Below, in pieces: positions 3,100 to 42,453 of a DNA stretch of 47,443 nt. The notes below the pieces were generated by a model that had not been told where the DNA came from, ran no database searches, and was given only the letters and a program-made list of their open reading frames with translations. The number at the start of each line of letters is the position of its first letter. The stretch's first letter is position 1. The DNA is from an uncultured Lachnospiraceae bacterium (GTDB taxonomy: Bacteria > Bacillota > Clostridia > UBA1381): assembly GCA_964561265.1 (NCBI GenBank), contig CAZLOX010000002.1, positions 1-47,443 of the forward strand. The letters run 5' to 3'. Position numbers and translations under genes: made by a program.

Positions 3100-5025
3100 T
3101 TAAACTATGCAGGCTCCGCCGGCAATGTCATTTATTGTGGTAAGCGCGGTAAGATTTCCGTCTGTTGTTTCAGCGGACAAAATCATACCGTTTGATTCAA
3201 GTCCCATAATTTTGCGCGGGGCAAGATTTGCTATAAAGATAACATTTTTTCCTATAAGTTCTTCCGGTTTATGGAATTTTGATATTCCGGATAATATCTG
3301 ACGTTTCTCGCCGCCGGCGTCAAGCAGGAATCTCAAAAGTTTTGATGACTTCGGAACTTTCTCACATTCCAGAACTTTTCCGACTCTTATATCCAGCTTT
3401 TCAAAATCTTCAAAAGGAATAATATCCTTGTAAGGCTCAGGAACAGGGCCTTCAGGCTCGCTTTCGGCTTCTGTTTCCGCCGCGATTTCAGCCAGTGTTT
3501 TTTCGATATCAATTCTCGAAAACAGCGGAACAGCCTCACCTATTTTAGTGCCGGACTTGATCTGTCCGAAAGACGCAATACTTTCATATGAAATATCGTC
3601 AAAATTAAGCTGTGCCGATATTGCCGCTGACGTATCGGGCATAAATGATGATAACAGCGACGCGATAAAGCGTATCGCTTCGGCTAAATTATAAAGCACG
3701 GTCTGCAGACGTGATTTATCCTCCGATTTTGCAAGAATCCACGGCGTGGTTTCATCAATGTATTTATTCGCGCGGTTCGCAATCTTCCATATTTCATCAA
3801 GCGCGTCCGCAATATGCCATCCCTGCATAGCGTTTTCAACCGCGTTTTTCGCGTTAAGACACACATTTTTCAAATCAGCGTCAAGTTCGTCCTCCGCGCC
3901 GGCATCCTTTATTTCACCGCCGAAATATTTGTTTATCATAGCGGCAGTTCTGTTCACGAGATTGCCCAGAGTATTCGCTAAATCCGAATTGTAGCGGTTC
4001 AGGAATATTTCATATGTGATTGTTCCGTCCTGCGCGAAAGGCATTTCATGCAGCGCATAGTACCTTACCGCGTCAACTCCGAATCTTTTAACAAGCTCAT
4101 CGGCGTATATAACGTTTCCGCGCGATTTGCTCATTTTTTCCTCGCCGAAAAGCATCCACGGATGTCCGAATACCTGTTTAGGCAGCGGTTCGCCGAGAGC
4201 CATAAGCATAATAGGCCAGTATATGGTGTGGAAACGCAGGATATCTTTGCCGATTATATGCACGTCCGCCGGCCAGTATTTGTTGTACAATTCACCTTTT
4301 TCATCGGGAGAATATCCGAGCGCGGTTATATAATTTGAAAGCGCGTCAATCCATACATAAACAACATGTTTGCTGTCAAATTCAACCGGAATACCCCATG
4401 AAAAACTTGTTCGTGAAACGCACAGGTCCTGAAGTCCGGGCTTTATGAAGTTGTTTATCATTTCTTTTTTTCTTGATTCAGGCTGTATAAATTCAGGATT
4501 TTCCTCGATATATTTCATCAGCCTGTCCTGATATTTTGATATTTTAAAGAAGTACGCTTCTTCCTTTGTAGGATGAACTTCGCGTCCGCAGTCGGGGCAT
4601 TTTCCGTCAACAAGCTGACTCTGCGTCCAGAAACTTTCGCACGGTGTGCAGTACAATCCCTCATATTCGCTTTTGTATATATCGCCTTGTTCGTAAAGTT
4701 TTGTAAATATTTTCTGAACAGATTTTTTGTGATACTCGTCTGTTGTGCGTATGAATTTATCATAGCTTATATTCAGCAGAGCCGCGATTTCCTTTATCTG
4801 GTCGGAAATATGGTCAACGTGTTCTTTCGGAGATATGCCGGCATTTTCCGCTATCTCCTGTATTTTCTGTCCATGCTCATCGGTGCCTGTGAGGAAAAAA
4901 ACGTCATCCCCGAGATATCTGCGGAATCTTGCGATCGCGTCGGTCAGAACTATCTCGTAGGTATTTCCTATATGAGGTTTCTTCGATGTATATGCAATGG
5001 CAGTTGTTATATAAAACTTACTCAT
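3100..5025 (-). CDS. metG: Methionine--tRNA ligase with C-terminal tRNA-binding (Trbp111/EMAP-like) domain
   Basis: Contains YITTAIAYTSKKPHIGN (HIGH region), KMSKS, and a CPxC...CPDC zinc knuckle. The C-terminus has DIRVGKV...LLRFLLDAGG. I place the start at the ATG 5023-5025 (MSKFYITT...), which is preceded by AAAGGAG. The 33-codon N-terminal extension in the ORF track is unsupported. Confidence 0.93.
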   Translation of the reverse strand: MSKFYITTAIAYTSKKPHIGNTYEIVLTDAIARFRRYLGDDVFFLTGTDEHGQKIQEIAENAGISPKEHVDHISDQIKEIAALLNISYDKFIRTTDEYHKKSVQKIFTKLYEQGDIYKSEYEGLYCTPCESFWTQSQLVDGKCPDCGREVHPTKEEAYFFKISKYQDRLMKYIEENPEFIQPESRKKEMINNFIKPGLQDLCVSRTSFSWGIPVEFDSKHVVYVWIDALSNYITALGYSPDEKGELYNKYWPADVHIIGKDILRFHTIYWPIMLMALGEPLPKQVFGHPWMLFGEEKMSKSRGNVIYADELVKRFGVDAVRYYALHEMPFAQDGTITYEIFLNRYNSDLANTLGNLVNRTAAMINKYFGGEIKDAGAEDELDADLKNVCLNAKNAVENAMQGWHIADALDEIWKIANRANKYIDETTPWILAKSEDKSRLQTVLYNLAEAIRFIASLLSSFMPDTSAAISAQLNFDDISYESIASFGQIKSGTKIGEAVPLFSRIDIEKTLAEIAAETEAESEPEGPVPEPYKDIIPFEDFEKLDIRVGKVLECEKVPKSSKLLRFLLDAGGEKRQILSGISKFHKPEELIGKNVIFIANLAPRKIMGLESNGMILSAETTDGNLTALTTINDIAGGACIV

Positions 5026-5078
5026 ATAAATACTCCTTTGTTTATTTTTTGTAAAGGAAACGCTGAATAAATCAATAT

Positions 5079-5306
5079 AAAAAAATAGTTTTAGTCCCCC
5101 GACGTCAGTAGTTTTGCTACGCAAAACCGCTTACTATGTAAGCGTCGGACATCTTTCCGATACTTGCGGAAAATAGCTCGTAAGTGGTGAATTTCCGTAG
5201 GAAATTCATTCAGTAGTTTTGCTACGCAAAACCGCTTACTATGTAAGCATCGGATATCTTTCCGATACTTATGAAGAGCGTACATTTTCCGCAAAACTAT
5301 TTTTTT
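5079..5306 (-). repeat. Structured duplicated element in the metG 5' leader (unknown class)
   Basis: Two 61-nt direct repeats (5105-5165 and 5210-5270) are 59/61 identical with a 105-bp period. On the minus strand each repeat folds into three abutting hairpins: ATCGGA..TCCGAT, GCTTAC-ATA-GTAAGC and GTTTTGC-GTA-GCAAAAC. There is an extra hairpin GAATTTCC-GTA-GGAAATTC at 5189-5207. The whole element is bracketed by a 14-nt inverted repeat (5293-5306 / 5079-5092). An 11-bp helix joins 5284-5294 to 5164-5174. Confidence 0.7.
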
Positions 5307-10872: not shown

Positions 10873-10901
10873 TTGACAGCATATATAATTTATGCTATAA
10901 T
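10873..10901 (+). promoter_or_regulatory. Sigma-A-type promoter of the DAHP synthase leader
   Basis: TTGACA (10873-10878), 17-nt spacer, TATAAT (10896-10901). Confidence 0.65.
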
Positions 10902-10934
10902 TGTTTTGTAAAATGAATGAAAGGAATAAAAATC

Positions 10935-11033
10935 ATGAATAATATGATTCGGACAGCCGAATACTTTTATTGCTTTAGCTTTAGTGACTTTTATTACGCT
11001 AAGGTTTTTTTGCCGTCCGGATGTATTTGCTGA
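10935..11033 (+). CDS. Candidate aromatic-rich leader peptide (32 aa), not in the ORF track
   Basis: ATG 10935 is preceded by AGGA 9 nt upstream. Translation is MNNMIRTAEYFYCFSFSDFYYAKVFLPSGCIC, ending at TGA 11031-11033. Eight of the 12 residues at positions 10-21 are Phe or Tyr. Confidence 0.55.
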   Translation: MNNMIRTAEYFYCFSFSDFYYAKVFLPSGCIC

Positions 11034-11060
11034 TTTATATAATATCATATAGATATTACA

Positions 11061-11090
11061 GCGGTAATCGGATGGATTACCGCTTTTTTA
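11061..11090 (+). terminator. Leader (attenuator) terminator upstream of DAHP synthase
   Basis: 9-bp stem GCGGTAATC / GATTACCGC with a 5-nt loop, followed by TTTTTTA. It lies 83 nt upstream of the DAHP synthase start codon. Confidence 0.7.
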
Positions 11091-11172
11091 TTTGTTTTGA
11101 CAGCTATCGCTGCATAATAAATATTTGCAGCGTATAACATAAAAATAATTATTTTCAAAGGAGATTAAAATT

Positions 11173-12177
11173 ATGGTAATTATATTGAAATCAACGGCAA
11201 CAAAATCGGATGAAGAAGCTGTAATAAAGCAGATAAGCGATATGGGATTCTCGCCTGTGCATATTCAGGGTGAACATTCCGCTATAATAGGCGTTGTAGG
11301 CGACACATCCAAGATCAACGAGAGCGTTTTTCTCTCAAATGACGCGATCCGCGATGTAAAAAGAATTTCAGAACCGTATAAACTGGCAAACCGCAAAGTA
11401 CATCCCGAACCAAGTGTTTTTGATATTTCGGGAAGAAAAGTCGGAGAGGGATATTTCTCGGTTATGGCCGGTCCGTGTTCGGTGGAAACGCATGATCAGC
11501 TTTGCAGTGTGGCCGAATCGGTGAAAAAAAGCGGAGCCGCATTTCTGCGCGGCGGCGCGTTCAAACCGCGCACATCTCCATACGCGTTTCAGGGACTTGG
11601 CGTTGACGGACTGAAACTGCTGGTTGAAGCGAAACAGGAAACAGGTCTGCCTATCGTTACGGAGATTATGAATCCAAAGGATCTGCCTTTATTTGAAGAT
11701 GTGGATATTATTCAGGTCGGCGCGAGAAATATGCAGAATTTTGAACTTTTAAAAGAACTGGGATATGTAAATAAGCCGATACTTCTGAAACGCGGTCTTG
11801 CCAGCACTATACAGGAATGGGTTATGAGCGCCGAATATATTATGTCGGGCGGAAACGAGCAGGTAATATTCTGTGAACGCGGTATAAGAACTTATGAAAC
11901 ATTTACAAGAAATACTCTTGATTTGTCCGCTGTTAAGAAAATCTCTCATCTGCCGGTAATCATTGATCCGAGCCACGCTACCGGAATACCGTGGATGGTT
12001 AAGCCTCTTGCAAAAGCGGCTGTGGCAGTAGGCGCGGACGGCATTATGATAGAGGTTCATAACAATCCTGCAAAGGCATTGTGCGACGGTTCGCAGTCGC
12101 TTACTCCGGCGCAGTTTGACGATGTGATGGATACTATAAAAAGATATGCTGAATTTGAAGGGAAAATGCTGGATTAA
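11173..12177 (+). CDS. aroF: 3-deoxy-7-phosphoheptulonate (DAHP) synthase, type I-beta, with N-terminal ferredoxin-like regulatory domain
   Basis: A ~65-aa N-terminal ACT/FL-like domain (MVIILKS...GVVGD) precedes the catalytic core. Core motifs include [26 protein letters not shown] and GIMIEVH. AAAGGAGA SD is present. Confidence 0.9.
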
Positions 12178-15233: not shown

Positions 15234-17147
15234 TTATTGCTCAACTTTTTCTATCCCGCTCAATTCATTATCACGATAGACTGTACGGACATTGATTCCG
15301 CCCTGCTCTGACGATGTAAATGAAAATGCGCCGCCGGAAGGAGTTATATCCGCGAATATGTGTACAAGCTCGCCGTTATAATAAACATTTCCTATACCGC
15401 TTGCGTCAGGCGCTTCAACATACGATATGCCATACGGTTTGTACTTTGAAAATATATCTTCAAAGGTACGGCCGCCGCCGGTACCGTCAGCCTCTGATGT
15501 TTCCTGCAAAATCACATATCCTATATTCGTATTTTCAGCCAGATTAACATCGCCGCCTGCTGAAACGGCATCTCCATAGGTCACAGCGGAAAGAACCGAA
15601 GGTATAAATGTACGGGCTTTAAATTCCTCATCAGAATAAGGAGCTAATCCTGTCAGATTTCCCATCGGATCATAGCTGCCGTCGCCGTTGTCAACGCGTT
15701 CGCGCACAGTGTGAACATCAACATCACCCTTTTTTTCGCTGTCGGCATATTCTATCTTTACAGCCATTCCGTCATTGCCCATATCAACGCCGTCAAAGAA
15801 ATATCTTACTCTCTGACCTTTGTAGTATAAGATATCGGCGTTCTTATCCCATGACAGACCGTATTTGGTGTATTCCTCAAAATCGAATGATGTAGCAGGG
15901 CTTTCGCTTATTCCCGATGCAAGCATAACATCATCTGAGCCTTCAACCGTTTTTGAAATCAATACACCGTTTTTGATATCCTGTAATATTTTTTCATACA
16001 GCGCAATGGTTTCATCAACAATCTCTCTGCTCCAGACAAACTCTCCGCGGGTGCCTGTCCAGGCCTTCTGACCTATCATAGATTCAAGATTTATCTTTTC
16101 CTGTTCAAGCCATTTGGCATATTCGTCATAAGTCCACCATTCTACATTGGGGGACTCATAAACGGCATTGCCGGACAGGATAGTCCTGTCCTCTGATATA
16201 GTAGTATAGTTTGCAGTATCCGGAAGGGTATTTGTGGCGAATGCCACAGTTGTACCGGCTACCAGACAAATTGCAGCGGCAGCTGCTGCCGGAGTAATTT
16301 TTGTAAATTTCATAATTGCATTTATCCTTTCTTTAAGAGCGTTTCTGCTGAAACTGCTGCTGAACTGATACGAACCGGCTTTCTGTTCTTCCATCTGGAT
16401 AAGAGCCATAGCATAGGAAGATTTTCCGCCTCCAAGTATACGGATAACCTTTTCATCGCACGACAGCTCGATATCTCTGTTAGCGGTAATGTACATAATC
16501 CACACCATCGGATTAAACCAATGAACGCATAACGAAACGGTGAGCAGAAATTTAAAAATCGCGTCAAAACGTCTGATATGCACATATTCGTGAGTCAGCA
16601 CGTATTTAAGAATGTTCGTATCGTTCCAGTCAGTTTCCTTGGGCATCAGTATAACAGGCCGGAACAAACCGTATGTTAAAGGCGAGGAGATACGGTCGTA
16701 AACGCGGATTGAGAGCGGCCGTAATATCTGATGTTCTTCAAGCCAGTTTTTCAAAAAATCATTTTCAACGGGGAGGCTTTCGGCAAATCTTTTTCGCCAT
16801 ACAAAATACGAAACCGCAAAATAGGAGCCTGCCGCAAGCGTACCAATGATCCATACAGCTGTTTTAAGGCTGATAAACGGCACAGTTTCCGGAGAAATCA
16901 GTTCAGTATAAACTGCCGCGTCTGCTGTATTAACGGAATCTATATCATACGCGGCAGGCGCAGTATTTGTTTCGGTTACTTCAGACATTTGATTATGCGG
17001 AGCAACTATTGAGTACACGCTCAGTTTACAAGGCAATGAATAAGGAATAAGAAGCCGCGCCAGAACGATCCACCATAAAATGCAGAATGTCATTTTAGGC
17101 AGTCTGTTAAGCGTAAATGCGCGGATAAGCACAATCACCGTTATCAT
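15234..17147 (-). CDS. BlaR1/MecR1-like M56 family membrane metalloprotease-sensor with long non-canonical C-terminal domain
   Basis: HEYVHIRRFD zinc motif, N-terminal TM helices and a ~350-aa extracytoplasmic C-terminus. An upstream in-frame ATG (17181-17183) overlaps the blaI stop and is followed by an in-frame TGA (17154-17156); see findings. Confidence 0.8.
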   Translation of the reverse strand: MITVIVLIRAFTLNRLPKMTFCILWWIVLARLLIPYSLPCKLSVYSIVAPHNQMSEVTETNTAPAAYDIDSVNTADAAVYTELISPETVPFISLKTAVWIIGTLAAGSYFAVSYFVWRKRFAESLPVENDFLKNWLEEHQILRPLSIRVYDRISSPLTYGLFRPVILMPKETDWNDTNILKYVLTHEYVHIRRFDAIFKFLLTVSLCVHWFNPMVWIMYITANRDIELSCDEKVIRILGGGKSSYAMALIQMEEQKAGSYQFSSSFSRNALKERINAIMKFTKITPAAAAAAICLVAGTTVAFATNTLPDTANYTTISEDRTILSGNAVYESPNVEWWTYDEYAKWLEQEKINLESMIGQKAWTGTRGEFVWSREIVDETIALYEKILQDIKNGVLISKTVEGSDDVMLASGISESPATSFDFEEYTKYGLSWDKNADILYYKGQRVRYFFDGVDMGNDGMAVKIEYADSEKKGDVDVHTVRERVDNGDGSYDPMGNLTGLAPYSDEEFKARTFIPSVLSAVTYGDAVSAGGDVNLAENTNIGYVILQETSEADGTGGGRTFEDIFSKYKPYGISYVEAPDASGIGNVYYNGELVHIFADITPSGGAFSFTSSEQGGINVRTVYRDNELSGIEKVEQ

Positions 17148-17179
17148 AACCGCTCACAGAGTGCTCATTTGTATCAGAT

Positions 17180-17551
17180 TCATTTTTCTGCCTCTCCCAT
17201 TTTTTTAACAAGCTGTTTAAGTTCATCTATCTGACAGGCAGACAGGTTTTTTCTTCCAAGAAGCGCGGTGAAAAGCTTATCAACAGAGCCGTCATACAAT
17301 TTTCCGATAAGTTCATCTGTTTCTGCTTCCTGCGCCTTTTCCTTAGATACCAGAGCGTGGCACATAAAGTTCGGCTCGGTACGCAGAATAGCCTCTTTCG
17401 CTATACACTTCTTGATAACAGTGTAAGTTGTATTCATATTCCAGCCGATATCCTCCTTTAATTTGTCGGATATCTGCTTTGCTGTCATATCACCATCCTT
17501 CCATAAAACACTCATGACTTTAAGTTCCGAGTCAAAAAGTTTGACTGCCAT
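17180..17551 (-). CDS. BlaI/MecI/CopY family transcriptional repressor
   Basis: Winged-helix N-terminus (LSDSELKVMSVLW-type: FDSELKVMSVLWKDGDMTAKQI...WNMNTTYTVIKKC). Length (123 aa) and position upstream of an M56 gene both fit. Confidence 0.88.
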   Translation of the reverse strand: MAVKLFDSELKVMSVLWKDGDMTAKQISDKLKEDIGWNMNTTYTVIKKCIAKEAILRTEPNFMCHALVSKEKAQEAETDELIGKLYDGSVDKLFTALLGRKNLSACQIDELKQLVKKMGEAEK

Positions 17552-27582: not shown

Positions 27583-28422
27583 TTAAATTATTATGTTGTC
27601 AATAAGCCGTGTTGTTCCGAAACGTACCGCCAAGGCGATGAGAGTTTTATCTTCCGCGGTTTCGCAGGATTCCAAAGACGGGAATTTTACGCTTTCAATA
27701 TATTCTATCTCAGCAAGCGGCATTTTATTGATTTCAGCGCGTATTGTGTCTTTTAATACATCTGTTCTCTTTTCGCCGTTTTTACAGAGTTCTTCCGCCG
27801 CTTTCAGTCCGCGGCTGAGCGATAATGCCTGCGCGCGTTCTTCCGCTGATAAATATGTGTTTCTCGAACTCATAGCCAGACCGTCTTTTTCGCGCACGAT
27901 AGGGCAGGGAACAATTTCAATATCAAAATTCATATCCTCTGCCATACGGCATATAACGGCAAGCTGCTGAGCATCCTTCTGTCCGAAATACGCGCGGTCA
28001 GGAGTAATTATATTAAATAGCTTTGATACTACCGTTGTAACGCCTCTGAAATGAATCGGTCTTGAAACTCCGCACAATATACTGGTGATTTCCTCAACAT
28101 TCACATATGTTTTATATCCGGCCGGATACATTTCCGCAGCTGTCGGATGAAAAATAACAGACGCTCCGCCCTGAGACGCAACGTTTTTATCATGTTCCAG
28201 ATCGCGCGGATATTTGTCAAGGTCCTCATTAACTCCGAACTGTGTAGGATTTACAAAAATACTCACGACAACTATATCATTCTGTGACGCCGCTTTTTCT
28301 ATAAGCGATTTATGTCCGTCATGGAGATATCCCATTGTCGGAACAAGTCCTATGCTTTTGCTAATCTTTTTCTGTTCATTTATATATTCTCTCATTTCTG
28401 AAACAGTTGTTATAATTTTCAT
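27583..28422 (-). CDS. panC: Pantoate--beta-alanine ligase
   Basis: Motifs [29 protein letters not shown] and SSRN. Confidence 0.93.
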
Positions 28423-29210
28423 TGCGGAAAAATGCCTCCTTTGACTTCGTTTATATAGTCGGTTACACCCTTTTTTACGGTATCATTCAGTTCTGCATAT
28501 TTCTTTACAAATGCCGGAACATAATCGCTGAATAATCCAAGCATATCGTAAAGTACGAGAACCTGTCCGTCACATCCTGCGCCTGCGCCTATTCCTATTG
28601 TAGGCACTGATATTTCTTCACTTACTCTTTTTGCCAGTTCTTTCGGAATACATTCAAGCACAATACAAAACGCGCCTGCCGCTTCTATTGCTTTTGCGTC
28701 CGCAATAAGTTTCTGCGCTTCAGCTTCTTCCTTTGCGCATATGCCGAAACCGCCGAGCTGATTTACACTCTGCGGAGTGAGTCCGAGATGTCCGACAACA
28801 GGAATACCGGCATCGCATATTGCTTTTACAACATCGGCAATTTCTTCTCCGCCCTCTATTTTTACCGCGTGCGCGTTTCCTTCCGAAATCAGTCTGCCGG
28901 CATTTTCAACAGCCTTATATACGCCGAGATGGCATGACAAAAACGGCATATCGGAAACAATAAGAGGATATTTTGCTCCGCGCGCGACCGCTTTTGTATG
29001 ATGGAGCATATCTTCCATTGTTACATGAGTGGTATTTTCATATCCAAGCACCACATTTCCCAGTGAATCGCCGACAAGAATCATATCGCATCCGGCTTCA
29101 TCAAGAATTTTAGCCATAGGATAATCATACGCGGTAAGCATAGATATTTTTTCCTTACCTTTCATTTGTCTGATTGTTTTTGTTGTTATCTTTTTTCGTT
29201 TTGAATCCAT
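28419..29210 (-). CDS. panB: 3-methyl-2-oxobutanoate hydroxymethyltransferase
   Basis: Motifs [21 protein letters not shown] and GHLGLTPQS. There is a 4-nt overlap with panC. Confidence 0.93.
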
Positions 29211-29342: not shown

Positions 29343-29482
29343 CCAAAAGAGAGCGGTCTGTGCCGCGGATTTTATAATCTGTCCAAAGTTCTGAACCGCC
29401 TGCAAATGCGGAAAGAGTGATTTTACAGATTGTAAGTCTCTGTTGGGAATCCAATCAAAGCTTGTATCTATAATACAACGAC

Positions 29483-29511
29483 ATTATAACATAAAAAAAA
29501 TTGGTTGTCAA
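29483..29511 (-). promoter_or_regulatory. Promoter of panBCD
   Basis: Minus strand reads TTGACA (29506-29511), 17-nt spacer, TATAAT (29483-29488). Confidence 0.65.
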
Positions 29512-35689: not shown

Positions 35690-37471
35690 TTAGTTATCGT
35701 CCTTGCTGCTGACAGAAATAGCAAGTTCCTCAAGCTGTTTGTCATCTACGACAGACGGCGCGTCGGTCATAAGTTCCGATGCATTCTGCACTTTCGGGAA
35801 TGCGATAACGTCCCTGATATTATCGCAGCCGGTAAGAATCATAACAAGTCTGTCAAGACCGTATGCCATACCGCCGTGCGGAGGCGTGCCGTACTGGAAT
35901 CCCTCAAGAAGGAAACCGAATCTTTCCCACGCGTCCTCTTTTGTGAAACCAAGCACGTTAAACATCTTTTCCTGCAAGTCGCTGTTGTATATTCTGATAC
36001 TTCCGCCGCCGGCTTCATAGCCGTTGATTACAATGTCATATGCTTTTGAGCGTACCTTTTCCGGCGCTGTGTCAAGATACTGTATATCCTCATCCATAGG
36101 AGCGGTGAACGGATGATGTTTTGCCGTGAATCTGCCCTCATCCTCGCTGTACTCAAGAAGCGGAAATTCCGTTACCCATAAAAGGTCATATCCGCCCTTT
36201 ATAAGGTCAAGACGCTTTGCAACTTCAAGTCTGAGCGCGCCAAGAGAATCGAACACTACAGAATCCTTGTCCGCTACAAATACAAGCAGGTCGCCTGTTT
36301 CTCCGCCCATAGCGGAAATGATCGCGTCTGTTTCTTCGGGTTTGAGGAATTTGGCGAAAGATGATTTGTTTTCGTTTTCGCCTATGTTAATCCATGCAAG
36401 TCCCTTTGCCTTGTATGTCTTGACAAATTCGCCGAGCGAGTCCATCTCTTTGCGGCTGAATTTCGCGCCGCCGCCTTTTATATTGATGCCGCGCACGCTT
36501 CCGCCGTTTTCAACAGCGCCTTTGAATACCTTGAAATCGCATTTTGCGGCAATATCTGATATATTCTGAAGTTCAAGTCCGAAACGCGTGTCGGGTTTGT
36601 CAGAACCGAATCTTTCCATTGCCTCGCTGTACGGAATCCTTCTGAGCGGAAGTTCAATATCAACGCCGGCAACATCTTTGAAAAGTTTCTGTATGAATTT
36701 TTCGTTTACTGAAATTATATCGTCCATTTCAACGAATGACATTTCGAGGTCTATCTGAGTAAATTCCGGCTGACGGTCAGCGCGCAGATCCTCATCTCTG
36801 AAACACTTTGTAATCTGGAAATATCTGTCCATACCCGAAAGCATTAAAATCTGCTTGTAAAGCTGCGGCGACTGCGGGAGAGCGTAGAATGTTCCCGGAT
36901 GAACACGGCTCGGAACAAGATAATCCCTTGCGCCCTCCGGAGTGCTTTTTGTAAGTACAGGCGTTTCTATTTCGAGAAAACCGTTGTCAGAAAAATAATT
37001 TCTTGCGATCTGTGCCGCTTTGTGGCGGACGATAAGATTTTTCTGAACGTCCGGACGTCTTAAATCAATATATCTGTATTTAAGACGGAGTTCATCTTTT
37101 ACCTTTGAATCTTCCTCAACGGCGAAAGGCGGTGTTTTGGACGAGTTGAGTATTCTCAGCTCCGATACCTGAATTTCTATCATGCCTGTTTTGATATTCG
37201 GGTTGACTGACGAACGTTTTACCACTTTTCCTACAGCCGCAAGCACATATTCATTTCTTACAGACTGAGCCTTTTCAAATGCGGTTTTGTCTATTTCTTC
37301 CGAAAAAGAAAGCTGTACTATACCGCTTATATCTCTCAGATCTATAAAAGTCAGAGCGCCCATCTGTCTGTAAACCTGAGTCCAGCCCATCACAGTAACA
37401 GTACTGCCGATGTCTTTCTCCGACAATTCCGCGCACTTATGCGTGCGTTTAATACCATGCAATGTTTCCAT
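35690..37471 (-). CDS. aspS: Aspartate--tRNA ligase
   Basis: Class II motifs FRDEDLRADRQPEFTQID and GGGSIRI, a GAD insertion domain and an N-terminal OB fold. Confidence 0.95.
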   Translation of the reverse strand: METLHGIKRTHKCAELSEKDIGSTVTVMGWTQVYRQMGALTFIDLRDISGIVQLSFSEEIDKTAFEKAQSVRNEYVLAAVGKVVKRSSVNPNIKTGMIEIQVSELRILNSSKTPPFAVEEDSKVKDELRLKYRYIDLRRPDVQKNLIVRHKAAQIARNYFSDNGFLEIETPVLTKSTPEGARDYLVPSRVHPGTFYALPQSPQLYKQILMLSGMDRYFQITKCFRDEDLRADRQPEFTQIDLEMSFVEMDDIISVNEKFIQKLFKDVAGVDIELPLRRIPYSEAMERFGSDKPDTRFGLELQNISDIAAKCDFKVFKGAVENGGSVRGINIKGGGAKFSRKEMDSLGEFVKTYKAKGLAWINIGENENKSSFAKFLKPEETDAIISAMGGETGDLLVFVADKDSVVFDSLGALRLEVAKRLDLIKGGYDLLWVTEFPLLEYSEDEGRFTAKHHPFTAPMDEDIQYLDTAPEKVRSKAYDIVINGYEAGGGSIRIYNSDLQEKMFNVLGFTKEDAWERFGFLLEGFQYGTPPHGGMAYGLDRLVMILTGCDNIRDVIAFPKVQNASELMTDAPSVVDDKQLEELAISVSSKDDN

Positions 37472-40769: not shown

Positions 40770-41297
40770 TTATTTTATATAATATACATAATTGTCTTTT
40801 CTCGGCGCCGGTTCTGCCGTTTCACCGTCGCAGTAGCCTAAAGCGCAGTGACCTATGCCCTCGTAATCGCCCTCAATGCCCAGTTGTTTCAGAATATTTC
40901 TGCCGAAATCCGATTCAAATTCTTCTTTTGCGCGGTGTATCCAGATACTGCCCAGACCAAGGCTTTCGGCGGCATTCATCATATTCCCCAGTACCAGACT
41001 GCCGTCATAGAGATATGTTGCCGCGCTTTTGTCAGCAAGCACAATCAGAATTACCGGCGCGCCGTAGAACGGGTCAAAGCCTTCCTGCCATCCGCCTATT
41101 TTTCTGTTTTCATCAGAAATCCTGTCACGGAGTTCCTTATCGGTAACAGCAATAATAAGCGGCGACTGTTTTCCTCTGCCGGTAGGCGCGTATGTTCCGG
41201 CTTTTATAACGCTCTGCAGTTCCTCGTCCGTAATCATATCAGGTCTGAATTTCCGGCAGCTTCTTCTGCTTTCAAGAATTTTTAAAGTTTCGTTCAT
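40770..41297 (-). CDS. Nitroreductase family protein
   Basis: N-terminal RRSCRKF motif, then APTGRGKQ. Size (~175 aa) fits. Confidence 0.85.
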   Translation of the reverse strand: MNETLKILESRRSCRKFRPDMITDEELQSVIKAGTYAPTGRGKQSPLIIAVTDKELRDRISDENRKIGGWQEGFDPFYGAPVILIVLADKSAATYLYDGSLVLGNMMNAAESLGLGSIWIHRAKEEFESDFGRNILKQLGIEGDYEGIGHCALGYCDGETAEPAPRKDNYVYYIK

Positions 41298-41333
41298 ATA
41301 AAATTACCTCCGCAATACTTTTTGTATACGTTA

Positions 41334-41362
41334 ATTATAGCATATTGAACAAAAAAAGTCAA
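41334..41362 (-). promoter_or_regulatory. Promoter of the nitroreductase gene
   Basis: Minus strand reads TTGACT (41357-41362), 17-nt spacer, TATAAT (41334-41339). Confidence 0.6.
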
Positions 41363-41403
41363 GTTCAGCGTTTCCTTTTTGCCTGATAAAAGCAAAAAAA
41401 CGC

Positions 41404-41433
41404 TTGACAAGGTAATGATGTATGTGATACAAT
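41404..41433 (+). promoter_or_regulatory. Promoter of a putative antisense small RNA
   Basis: TTGACA (41404-41409), 18-nt spacer ending in TGa, TACAAT (41428-41433). Confidence 0.55.
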
Positions 41434-41439
41434 AGATAC

Positions 41440-41530
41440 AAGAAGAGCAAGACTTCTAACGGTCAGCTCAAATGTTGTTTAGTATAAATAACCGCTAACA
41501 TTTGCACTGTTTGGGCGGTTATTTTACTTT
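41440..41530 (+). ncRNA. Putative ~90-nt antisense RNA overlapping the 3' end of the small ORF (candidate type I antitoxin)
   Basis: Bounded by the promoter above and the hairpin 41486-41524 followed by TTTTACTTTT. No ORF with an SD on this strand. Confidence 0.35.
41486..41525. terminator. Hairpin shared by the convergent small-ORF mRNA and the antisense RNA
   Basis: Stem AAATAACCGC / GCGGTTATTT with a 19-nt loop. It overlaps the TAA of the small ORF. Confidence 0.5.
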
Positions 41531-41602
41531 TATAGTAAATACTACAAAAAGTATAATTGCAATCAGCAGTATTTGTAATGCTTTATGTAAAGATCTTTTC
41601 AT
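41519..41602 (-). CDS. 27-aa hydrophobic peptide (candidate type I toxin / small membrane protein), not in the ORF track
   Basis: The ATG is preceded by GGAGGTGA 6 nt upstream. Translation is MKRSLHKALQILLIAIILFVVFTIKVK. Confidence 0.5.
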   Translation of the reverse strand: MKRSLHKALQILLIAIILFVVFTIKVK

Positions 41603-41745
41603 AGCAGCTCACCTCCCTCCCGAGCATCTTGATTAGCAACTTAATGCCGCTGCTCAATTTACTTGGAGTTATGTGGAGCTGACCGTCCGATTTAATCGTT
41701 TTCCGTCTTGCTTATTCTTCCTGATTGAGTAAACCCAATAATTAT

Positions 41746-41774
41746 ATTATAGTATATATTATCGGAAAATGCAA
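41746..41774 (-). promoter_or_regulatory. Promoter of the small-ORF mRNA
   Basis: Minus strand reads TTGCAT (41769-41774), 17-nt spacer, TATAAT (41746-41751). Confidence 0.55.
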
Positions 41775-41807
41775 GTAAAAATTTTTAAATGCTGTTCCAC
41801 TGTTCAT

Positions 41808-42380
41808 TTATTCAATATCATATACTTTCAGTTTGTGCGATTTAAATTCGTTGCTGTATGTATATTCTTCAACTATTCTGTCATCCTCAAATCTGAATAC
41901 CAGAATTTCTGCATCAAGCCAGTTCACCATTATTGTGTACTCTATTTCATCCTCGCTTTCCGCGCCGGGTTTTCCTAAAATGCTTATAAGTTCATCTTTA
42001 GTCATGGTCTTTAAATCATACTTTTCATGGAAATCATCAAGCATAAGATGTCTTTCATATCTGTATTTGTCCCATTTGTGAGGAGTAAACGATGACATAT
42101 AACTGAAAACCGTTATATGAATGATAATTATAACGCATATGTAAACAGCATAAACAATAAGCGAATATTTCTTGACTTTCTTAAAAAAATAACTCATTAC
42201 AAGAGGCATTATCAATATAAGTATGGGCAGTATCCGGTATATAAAAATATAGATGGGTTCCGGTATAACATCCGGTATAGTGCCATGTAAAATATGTTTT
42301 AGGACTATCGCTGAAAAAGTAATAAAATTCAGCAGTAGCCAAAGAATAGTTTCCACTGCGAGAACAATAAATTTTTTCAT
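41808..42380 (-). CDS. Hypothetical membrane protein (four TM helices + ~85-aa soluble C-terminal domain)
   Basis: Start set to MKKFIVLAV (ATG 42378-42380) after AAAGGAGA. No family recognised. Confidence 0.55.
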   Translation of the reverse strand: MKKFIVLAVETILWLLLNFITFSAIVLKHILHGTIPDVIPEPIYIFIYRILPILILIMPLVMSYFFKKVKKYSLIVYAVYICVIIIIHITVFSYMSSFTPHKWDKYRYERHLMLDDFHEKYDLKTMTKDELISILGKPGAESEDEIEYTIMVNWLDAEILVFRFEDDRIVEEYTYSNEFKSHKLKVYDIE

Positions 42381-42419
42381 AATATCACAATCTCCTTTTT
42401 CATAAAAAAACGCCAAAGA

Positions 42420-42453
42420 CAGTCCGGTATCCGAAATCACAGATACCAGACTG
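42420..42453 (-). terminator. Terminator-like hairpin after the PL11 gene
   Basis: 12-bp stem with one mismatch (CAGTCTGGTATC / GATACCGGACTG on the minus strand). T7 follows 9 nt downstream. Confidence 0.45.

Follow-up and report, generated by a model that had tools for sequence, protein, structure and literature searches.

Does the 510-bp gap between two minus-strand genes of an uncultured gut or rumen Clostridia bacterium, one encoding a nitroreductase and the other a membrane protein, hide a type I toxin-antitoxin cassette? The gap lies in a chromosomal stretch of 47,443 nucleotides, hereafter the window, for which an earlier reading made without database searches (the sequence-only reading) had proposed a small hydrophobic open reading frame (ORF) facing an antisense promoter, and had interpreted the whole as a type I toxin-antitoxin-like module. 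Unannotated cassettes of this kind are expected in Clostridia; as the ORF is below gene-caller length and the RNAs have no family model, such cassettes escape annotation and are probably undercounted. We tentatively favour a singleton, par-like type I toxin-antitoxin-like cassette of 440 bp, in which predicted transcripts with predicted ends would pair and an antisense RNA would control a putatively toxic membrane peptide. The promoter of the antisense RNA, the Shine-Dalgarno (SD)-led start, the hairpins and the repeat described below (Table 1) are supported by sequence statistics. From the initial proposal, the convergent layout and the statistically real signals stood, whereas the 7-nt complementarity to the SD region failed and the repeat proved not to be complementary between the two RNAs.

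On the plus strand, the antisense RNA would start from a sigma-70-type promoter. Twelve promoter sites matching the consensus at 11 or more of 12 positions are present in the window, versus 1.7 in dinucleotide shuffles, and 10 of the 12 precede genes. When a TG extension is required as well, six sites are found versus 0.03 expected; five are gene promoters and the sixth is the orphan at 41404-41433, which has no plus-strand gene downstream. We take this promoter as real because of the window's own promoter statistics, and the TTGACA-18-TACAAT element with TGn claimed for this position thus exceeds chance. A U-tailed intrinsic terminator is located ~50 nt downstream. Together, the promoter and terminator signals predict a non-coding RNA of ~93 nt, close to the ~90 nt first suggested, which would be antisense to the 3' end of the peptide mRNA and folds with a minimum free energy of -26.4 kcal/mol (z = -3.8). 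At the level of sequence signals, the orphan promoter, the terminator and the overlap with the 3' end of the ORF amount to an antisense RNA gene. A coding role for this small RNA was rejected, as it holds only an 8-codon ORF without SD; a 44-aa ORF starting with TTG (41502-41636) was also rejected as the plus-strand product, having no SD.

On the minus strand, the small ORF with its basic N-terminus and hydrophobic helix was present as stated, and so was the SD sequence 6 nt upstream of its ATG. This SD and ATG context is beyond chance in the window: GGAGG followed by ATG after 5-10 nt occurs nine times, six or seven of these occurrences are the starts of real long genes, and the small ORF is the only small intergenic case. 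The distance between GGAGG and ATG (9 nt) is that of the nitroreductase gene. In a scan of 662 kb, comprising the window and 88 related rumen Clostridia loci, three intergenic SD-led hydrophobic ORFs of 18-60 codons were found, and among these only the small ORF faces a convergent promoter of at least 10/12 within 300 nt. These start signals bear on whether the ORF is translated. The plus-strand small RNA may be the only functional element; the ORF would then be untranslated or meaningless, either a frame arisen by chance in the 3' untranslated region (UTR) of the operon upstream or what is left of a lost gene, namely its N-terminal signal anchor. Indeed, ORFs of at least 20 codons are common in the AT-rich gap, the codon-usage score is intermediate, 24% of stop-free off-frame windows scoring in the same range (27 codons being too few to inform), the mRNA promoter is weak, the ORF is without conservation, and MKR...K followed by a hydrophobic run is the typical start of a secreted or membrane protein. 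However, a perfect 8-nt SD at optimal spacing occurs elsewhere almost only at true starts, this one is embedded in an unusually stable hairpin (z = -4.6), a dedicated terminator incorporates the stop codon, and no longer homologous frame continues downstream. We consider an untranslated ORF possible, but doubtful.

The predicted peptide comprises a basic N-terminus, a single 17-residue transmembrane helix (residues 8-24, ALQILLIAIILFVVFTI) and a KVK C-terminus. Its grand average of hydropathy is 1.37, and the mean hydropathy of the 17-residue window is 3.0. It passes the rule of at least 10 hydrophobic residues per 15-residue stretch (PMC2887945) and has the helix and the size (<60-70 aa) that are generic to type I toxins. 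After the helix only T-I-K-V-K follows, and charge is mostly N-terminal (K2, R3, H6, K7). The peptide, which the sequence-only reading could not assign to a named family, matches no toxin family: comparison with Pfam, NCBIfam, PHROGs and PADLOC yielded no match, nothing being better than E = 0.18, and Pfam and NCBIfam gave none at E<=10. The same promoter, start and hairpin signals would also be carried by a real but harmless small membrane protein, such as an accessory or regulatory subunit, with the convergent RNA serving as a normal antisense regulator or one acting in trans. Lack of toxicity is common among small single-helix proteins (PMC10730256), a basic N-terminus followed by a helix has the normal look of a membrane anchor, and the chromosomal context is free of mobile-element genes. 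We nevertheless regard a harmless protein as unlikely: there is no linked partner protein, the relatives of the 210-aa membrane protein encoded upstream are never followed by such an ORF (three loci, with no cassette-like small ORF downstream), and a locked SD combined with a much stronger antisense promoter suggests an enforced off state.

This locked SD lies in the 5' UTR of the predicted peptide mRNA, which as a whole has a minimum free energy of ~-69 kcal/mol (z = -4.2). The long, irregular 5'-UTR hairpin is far more stable than its shuffles (-33.8 vs -19.9 +/- 3.0 kcal/mol, z = -4.6). Within it, GGAG...GUGAGCU of the ribosome-binding region is base-paired to the 3' half of a repeated motif, motif X (AGCUCCAC), and to a CUCC further downstream. 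The pairing takes in the GUGA end of the SD and the GGAG before it, and extends to the AUG in longer transcripts; the unpaired probability of the last four SD bases is at most 0.14. The locked SD and the much stronger antisense promoter suggest that expression of the peptide must be kept off. The near-consensus minus-strand promoter described for the peptide mRNA held up in part: the sequence is present and its -10 box is perfect, but the -35 box matches at only three of six positions, sites of this grade are at chance density (11 found vs 8.7 expected) and the promoter scan did not list it. No terminator was detected behind the 210-aa gene, so transcription continuing from it could just as well be the source of the peptide mRNA. 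The asymmetry between the two promoters, 11/12 with TG on the antisense side versus 9/12 on the peptide side, is as described for type I loci.

Both predicted units converge on one hairpin that overlaps the stop codon, in agreement with the sequence-only reading. It has a free energy of -16.0 kcal/mol on the plus strand and -17 kcal/mol on the minus strand, and is followed by a U-rich tail on the plus strand (UUUUACUUUU) and a U-poor tail on the minus strand (AUACUAAAC), so that termination of the peptide mRNA may be leaky. The guaranteed complementarity between the two RNAs, perfect over ~50 nt at this terminator, comprises the two terminator stem-loops, the stop codon and the last four codons. 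Given that the stop codon falls within the 5' arm of the hairpin that would terminate the mRNA, and that the nitroreductase gene follows at 221 nt on the same strand, the small ORF could be a leader peptide, a ribosome at the stop codon melting the terminator and allowing read-through into the nitroreductase gene. We give this idea hardly any credence because the nitroreductase gene has its own conserved strong promoter: matching at 11/12 with TG, it is located downstream of the hairpin and is conserved in a sister species that has no leader, and a strong opposing promoter lies in between.

Motif X is present in two inverted copies, with perfect blocks of 11 nt (41459-69 and 41676-86) and 8 nt (41446-53 and 41705-12). 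The inverted repeat noted earlier between 41446-41469 and 41676-41712 is confirmed: the two-block repeat (11+8) is obtained in 0.24% of shuffles of the 510-bp gap (p about 0.002), and the 11-mer alone in 6%. Because the two genes are read from opposite strands, the inverted orientation of the repeat places an identical motif X (AAGAA..GCAAGAC...ACGGUCAGCUC) in each RNA, and not a complement of the other's. This identity means that the repeat is not a par-type DRa/DRb contact, and leaves the ~50 nt at the common terminator as the sole antisense contact that is guaranteed. In the locking hairpin of the mRNA, the anti-SD strand is formed by the 3' half of motif X. The motif could also close the mRNA 5' to 3', but only after read-through of the terminator hairpin, a restriction that had been correctly stated; such closure is conceivable because the minus-strand terminator tail is U-poor. 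As for the CAGCTCA heptamer said to be complementary to the SD-AUG spacer, it is present and is a real direct repeat, the only one in the cassette, but the pairing is at chance level: 10% of shuffles do as well as the best duplex that the 5' part of the antisense RNA forms with the mRNA (-24.4 kcal/mol; p about 0.1), and among 35 genes scored as targets of this RNA the start region of the small ORF comes only third.

The repeat might act as DNA instead, either by delimiting an invertible segment (41470-41675) that swaps the promoter of the peptide gene or as the ends of a miniature transposable element. Its two significant blocks bracket exactly the ORF and the terminator and leave both promoters outside; after inversion each promoter would still make a coherent RNA, both copies of motif X ending in the same 11-mer, and the cassette is absent from the sister species. 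However, the orientation is the same in all three assemblies, the arms differ by a 13-nt insertion, the window has no recombinase or transposase gene, and no target-site duplication is visible. Furthermore, no second copy came to light in the window, among 200+ loci or among viral contigs; the motif X scan of the viral contigs returned 24 single hits (chance level), and the matches obtained in metagenome contigs (at least 120) were, among the matches listed, all single and at chance level. A DNA element is therefore, in our opinion, very unlikely. We attach similarly low probability to the proposals that the antisense RNA, through motif X, acts as a mimic or competitor (at the SD region or the read-through 3' tail) and not as a classical complement, or that the 11-bp cores are recombination sites swapping promoters. 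If motif X did function in this manner, it would be a new regulatory design for a peptide/antisense pair; flipping of the ORF-terminator segment would exchange the strong and weak promoters and yield a phase-variable toxin switch.

The type I-like cassette that we tentatively favour would operate as follows. From its weak own promoter or by upstream read-through, the minus strand would give rise to a ~260-nt mRNA for the 27-aa single-pass membrane peptide; this mRNA would be weakly made, structurally locked and probably stable, with half of the ribosome-binding site held in the 5'-UTR hairpin. The plus strand would produce the much more strongly promoted ~93-nt RNA, running towards the peptide gene and ending at the same hairpin. 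The two RNAs would engage in loop-loop pairing at their complementary terminator stem-loops, followed by duplex formation. By analogy with par and the Bacillus 3'-overlap systems, double-strand-specific cleavage of the duplex would then deprive the mRNA of its protective 3' hairpin, and collision of the converging polymerases may add to repression. The antisense RNA and the cis-acting SD lock would together keep peptide synthesis off while the antisense RNA is made.

Table 1. Features of the candidate cassette and its flanks (window coordinates; transcript ends are predicted).
Feature	Position	Strand	Description
Antisense-RNA promoter	41404..41433	plus	TTGACA-18-TGaTACAAT; sigma-70-type, 11/12, TG-extended; predicted start ~41440
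Predicted non-coding RNA, ~93 nt	41440..41533	plus	5' hairpin with motif X, then intrinsic terminator, tail UUUUACUUUU
Small ORF	41602..41519	minus	MKRSLHKALQILLIAIILFVVFTIKVK; 27 codons; stop codon 41521-41519
Shine-Dalgarno sequence	41616..41609	minus	GGAGGTGA; ends 6 nt before ATG
SD-locking 5'-UTR hairpin	41686->41600	minus	Long, irregular; -33.8 kcal/mol
Shared bidirectional terminator hairpin	41486..41524	both	10-bp perfect arms AAATAACCGC / GCGGTTATTT; stop codon in one arm
Predicted peptide mRNA, ~260 nt	41478..41739	minus	Candidate promoter to shared hairpin
Candidate peptide-mRNA promoter	41746..41774	minus	TTGCAT-17-TATAAT; -10 perfect, -35 3/6
Motif X, left copy	41440..41469	plus	AAGAAGAGCAAGAC-TTCTA-ACGGTCAGCTC; 5' end of antisense RNA
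Motif X, right copy	41676..41721	minus	GGAAGAATAAGCAAGAC-[18-nt insert with own small hairpin]-ACGGTCAGCTC; mRNA 5' UTR
AT-rich hairpin	41367..41403		Between back-to-back antisense-RNA and nitroreductase promoters; -13.6 and -16.3 kcal/mol (two strands)
Gap holding the cassette	41298-41807		510 bp; between two minus-strand genes
Membrane-protein gene	41808-42440	minus	Upstream of cassette; listed as 210-aa ORF from GTG
Nitroreductase gene	40770-41297	minus	221 nt downstream of small ORF

The convergent layout, with a small peptide, a locked SD, a strong antisense promoter and a common terminator, is that of par and of loci from Clostridioides difficile (PMC7472228, PMC6563280). The closest in layout are par itself (Fst / RNA II, Enterococcus faecalis pAD1) and the par-like loci of Firmicutes (PMC7472228). 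As in par, the promoters converge, although the toxin-side promoter is weakly supported in the cassette, a common bidirectional intrinsic terminator offers complementary stem-loops as the contact, and a toxin mRNA of ~230-260 nt is opposed by a short antisense RNA (PMC7472228). An intramolecular SD-sequestering stem-loop is also common to both; in the cassette it is an analogous feature, not proof of homology. In contrast to Fst, the peptide is free of Pro, Gly and Cys, which leaves it without the PXXXG(C) motif, and it does not end in a long charged tail. In contrast to par, the cassette has no DRa/DRb direct repeats, its significant repeat is inverted, and trans pairing at the start site is what chance would give. 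Because both the PXXXG(C) motif with its charged tail and the second start-site contact fail, the cassette is not a member of the Fst family.

The Bacillus subtilis pairs txpA/RatA, bsrG/SR4, bsrE/SR5 and yonT/SR6 resemble the cassette in their convergent, 3'-overlapping genes and single-helix peptides (28-60 aa in Bacillus). In these 3'-overlap systems, mRNA decay is RNase III-dependent. Their antitoxins are thought to act mainly via decay of the mRNA (PMC6563280). Unlike them, the cassette has an overlap of just ~50 nt, at the terminator, is not in a prophage, and encodes a peptide that is shorter than any of theirs and has no sequence similarity to them. The C. difficile pairs CD2517.1-RCd8, CD2907.1-RCd9 and CD0956.2-RCd10, with their prophage copies, come from the same bacterial class as the cassette. 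They share with it convergent overlapping genes, a lack of previous annotation and of homology to other families, and membrane peptides with C-terminal lysines (PMC6563280). The C. difficile toxins have 34-59 aa, a hydrophobic N-terminus, a long Lys-rich tail and long complementary regions, and are encoded next to CRISPR arrays or in prophages (PMC6563280); compared with this description, the cassette peptide has reversed polarity, with a basic N-terminus, a tail of 3-4 residues and only 27 aa. The cassette moreover sits amid housekeeping genes in a window without prophage genes, in which CRISPR arrays were not specifically searched for.

In hok/sok, the 5'-3' pairing of the fold-back inhibition (fbi) element keeps the full-length hok mRNA inert. 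A similar arrangement would arise in the cassette upon read-through, when the complement of motif X at the 3' end of the mRNA would pair with the motif X of the 5' UTR. In contrast to hok/sok, this fold-back needs unproven read-through, there is neither a hok-like peptide nor a mok-like overlapping frame, and the antisense RNA is at the 3' and not the 5' end. In length and one-helix design, the only two properties compared, the peptide is like ShoB, DinQ, TisB and ZorO of E. coli and BH0344 of Bacillus halodurans (26-29 aa), but in the enterobacterial short-toxin systems the antisense RNA is divergent or encoded in trans. A feature-based search produced BH0344 as a candidate of 27 aa (PMC2887945). 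The spacing filters of that search (at least 400 nt upstream and at least 250 nt downstream) would have missed the cassette, in which the small ORF is 205 nt from the upstream gene and 221 nt from the downstream gene.

Relatives of the cassette were sought at the level of the peptide, the DNA and the RNA. Rfam gave no match at gathering score in the whole window, and only noise at E<=10 in 41250-41850. Against plasmids and phages, neither tblastn with the peptide nor blastn in distant mode with 41400-41780 found a match, and back-translated peptide patterns and a two-arm pattern had zero hits in viral contigs. Among 80 genome loci of nitroreductase relatives (<=82% identity), neither the peptide nor the intergenic DNA was detected. 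Two contigs, L001 and L002, one of which is SHAF22-1 scaffold_769, carry the locus and are 100% identical to the window over >6 kb; they are consequently the same strain and offer no comparative information. The European Nucleotide Archive (ENA) contig SHAF22-1 scaffold_769 (L002, 1-176) matches the window up to 43103 and diverges completely from 43104, inside the rhamnogalacturonan lyase gene; the cause is a break in the assembly, a chimeric contig or a rearrangement at strain level. The samples behind ENA assemblies ERZ27277242 and ERZ23499073 contain the strain.

A sister species found in Logan assemblies (L227, L231-L234; raw reads SRR15970571, SRR27132456 and SRR30592881) has ~85% DNA identity, its nitroreductase being 86-87% and its S-layer-homology (SLH) protein 82% identical. 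It retains the nitroreductase promoter, and similarity ends just upstream of the -35 box of this promoter (~41366); beyond lies a different, divergent gene, and the cassette is absent at the syntenic site. The AT-rich hairpin at 41367..41403 forms the left edge of the missing segment. As relatives of both neighbour genes occur without the cassette, which would be expected of an accessory module, it is on these comparisons a species- or strain-specific accessory segment, independent of both.

Several points weigh against a toxin-antitoxin function. The cassette is single-copy in a window without mobile-element genes (no phage, plasmid, transposase or recombinase gene is present), and many Gram-positive type I loci are prophage-borne. 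Since no homologue was found, there is no sign of selection on the ORF or on the RNAs; the three contigs that bear the cassette are clonal. Complementarity outside the terminator does not exceed chance, the peptide-mRNA promoter is without statistical support, and the codon-usage score overlaps that of off-frame windows. Finally, with a tail that is merely KVK and a charge that is mostly N-terminal, the peptide also resembles an ordinary signal anchor.

The surroundings of the cassette are those of a fibre-degrading bacterium's chromosome. Housekeeping genes include those for methionyl-tRNA synthetase (MetRS, 3100-5124) and aspartyl-tRNA synthetase (AspRS, 35690-37471), panBC and the gene for 3-deoxy-D-arabino-heptulosonate 7-phosphate (DAHP) synthase; fibre-degrading enzymes (GH43, rhamnogalacturonan lyase) and SLH proteins are also encoded. 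The closest named relatives of the SLH protein are from Oscillospiraceae metagenome-assembled genomes (MAGs). The membrane-protein gene upstream of the cassette probably starts at the ATG at 42380, giving 190 aa. Its product is a four-helix membrane protein with a soluble C-terminal domain and belongs to no Pfam family; orphan-like in a word-indexed search of 5.8 billion proteins, it has 268 relatives in a full HMMER search with the 190-residue query, the best being 42% identical. At one locus (L236), a relative of this gene follows a gene for a rhamnosidase, a plant-pectin enzyme, and the copy in the window follows the rhamnogalacturonan lyase gene. The nitroreductase has >6500 relatives at E<=1e-60. 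Relatives of 73-82% identity are distributed across MAGs labelled Lachnospiraceae, Ruminococcaceae, Oribacterium, Saccharofermentans and even Treponema, in differing gene contexts, which suggests that the gene has spread horizontally and widely among rumen bacteria. A more distant relative, whose SLH protein is 66% identical, has a type II toxin-antitoxin pair (MazE/PemK; L228, 5310-5809) directly upstream of the SLH-protein gene. In the window this slot belongs to the nitroreductase gene, and the small-ORF cassette comes next upstream. The region upstream of the SLH gene seems to gather accessory modules.

Other observations concern the remainder of the window. A gene for a WapI-like immunity protein (26805-27197, minus strand) has no obvious toxin partner, and a BlaR1/BlaI-type sensor-repressor pair is encoded at 15234-17551 (minus strand). 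Upstream of panB (28419-29210), the stretch 29430-29510 (minus strand) matches the Rfam pan motif RF01749 at a score below threshold (24.3 bits vs a gathering score of 36.2, E = 0.054). It belongs to the ~270-nt leader that runs from a TG-extended 12/12 promoter (29511-29483) to the start of panB, and is probably a divergent pan-motif RNA preceding the panBC operon. On the plus strand, the DAHP synthase gene (11173-12177) is preceded at a distance of ~270 nt by a TG-extended promoter with a perfect match (12/12); the region 10873-11173, which includes this promoter, has no Rfam match even at E<=0.1 and may be an undescribed leader or attenuator of this aromatic amino-acid gene. Despite the two Firmicute aminoacyl-tRNA synthetase genes, no T-box leader or other Rfam family reached gathering score in the 47 kb of the window.

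As a singleton, the cassette has its present value as a well-defined candidate and not as a discovery. Should it prove real, the few type I systems known from Clostridia would gain an unrelated toxin peptide with its antisense RNA, and the cassette would be the first type I system from an uncultured lineage of fibre degraders in the gut or rumen. It would further mean that the par-type layout, with its convergent promoters, common terminator and locked SD, recurs without the Fst peptide.

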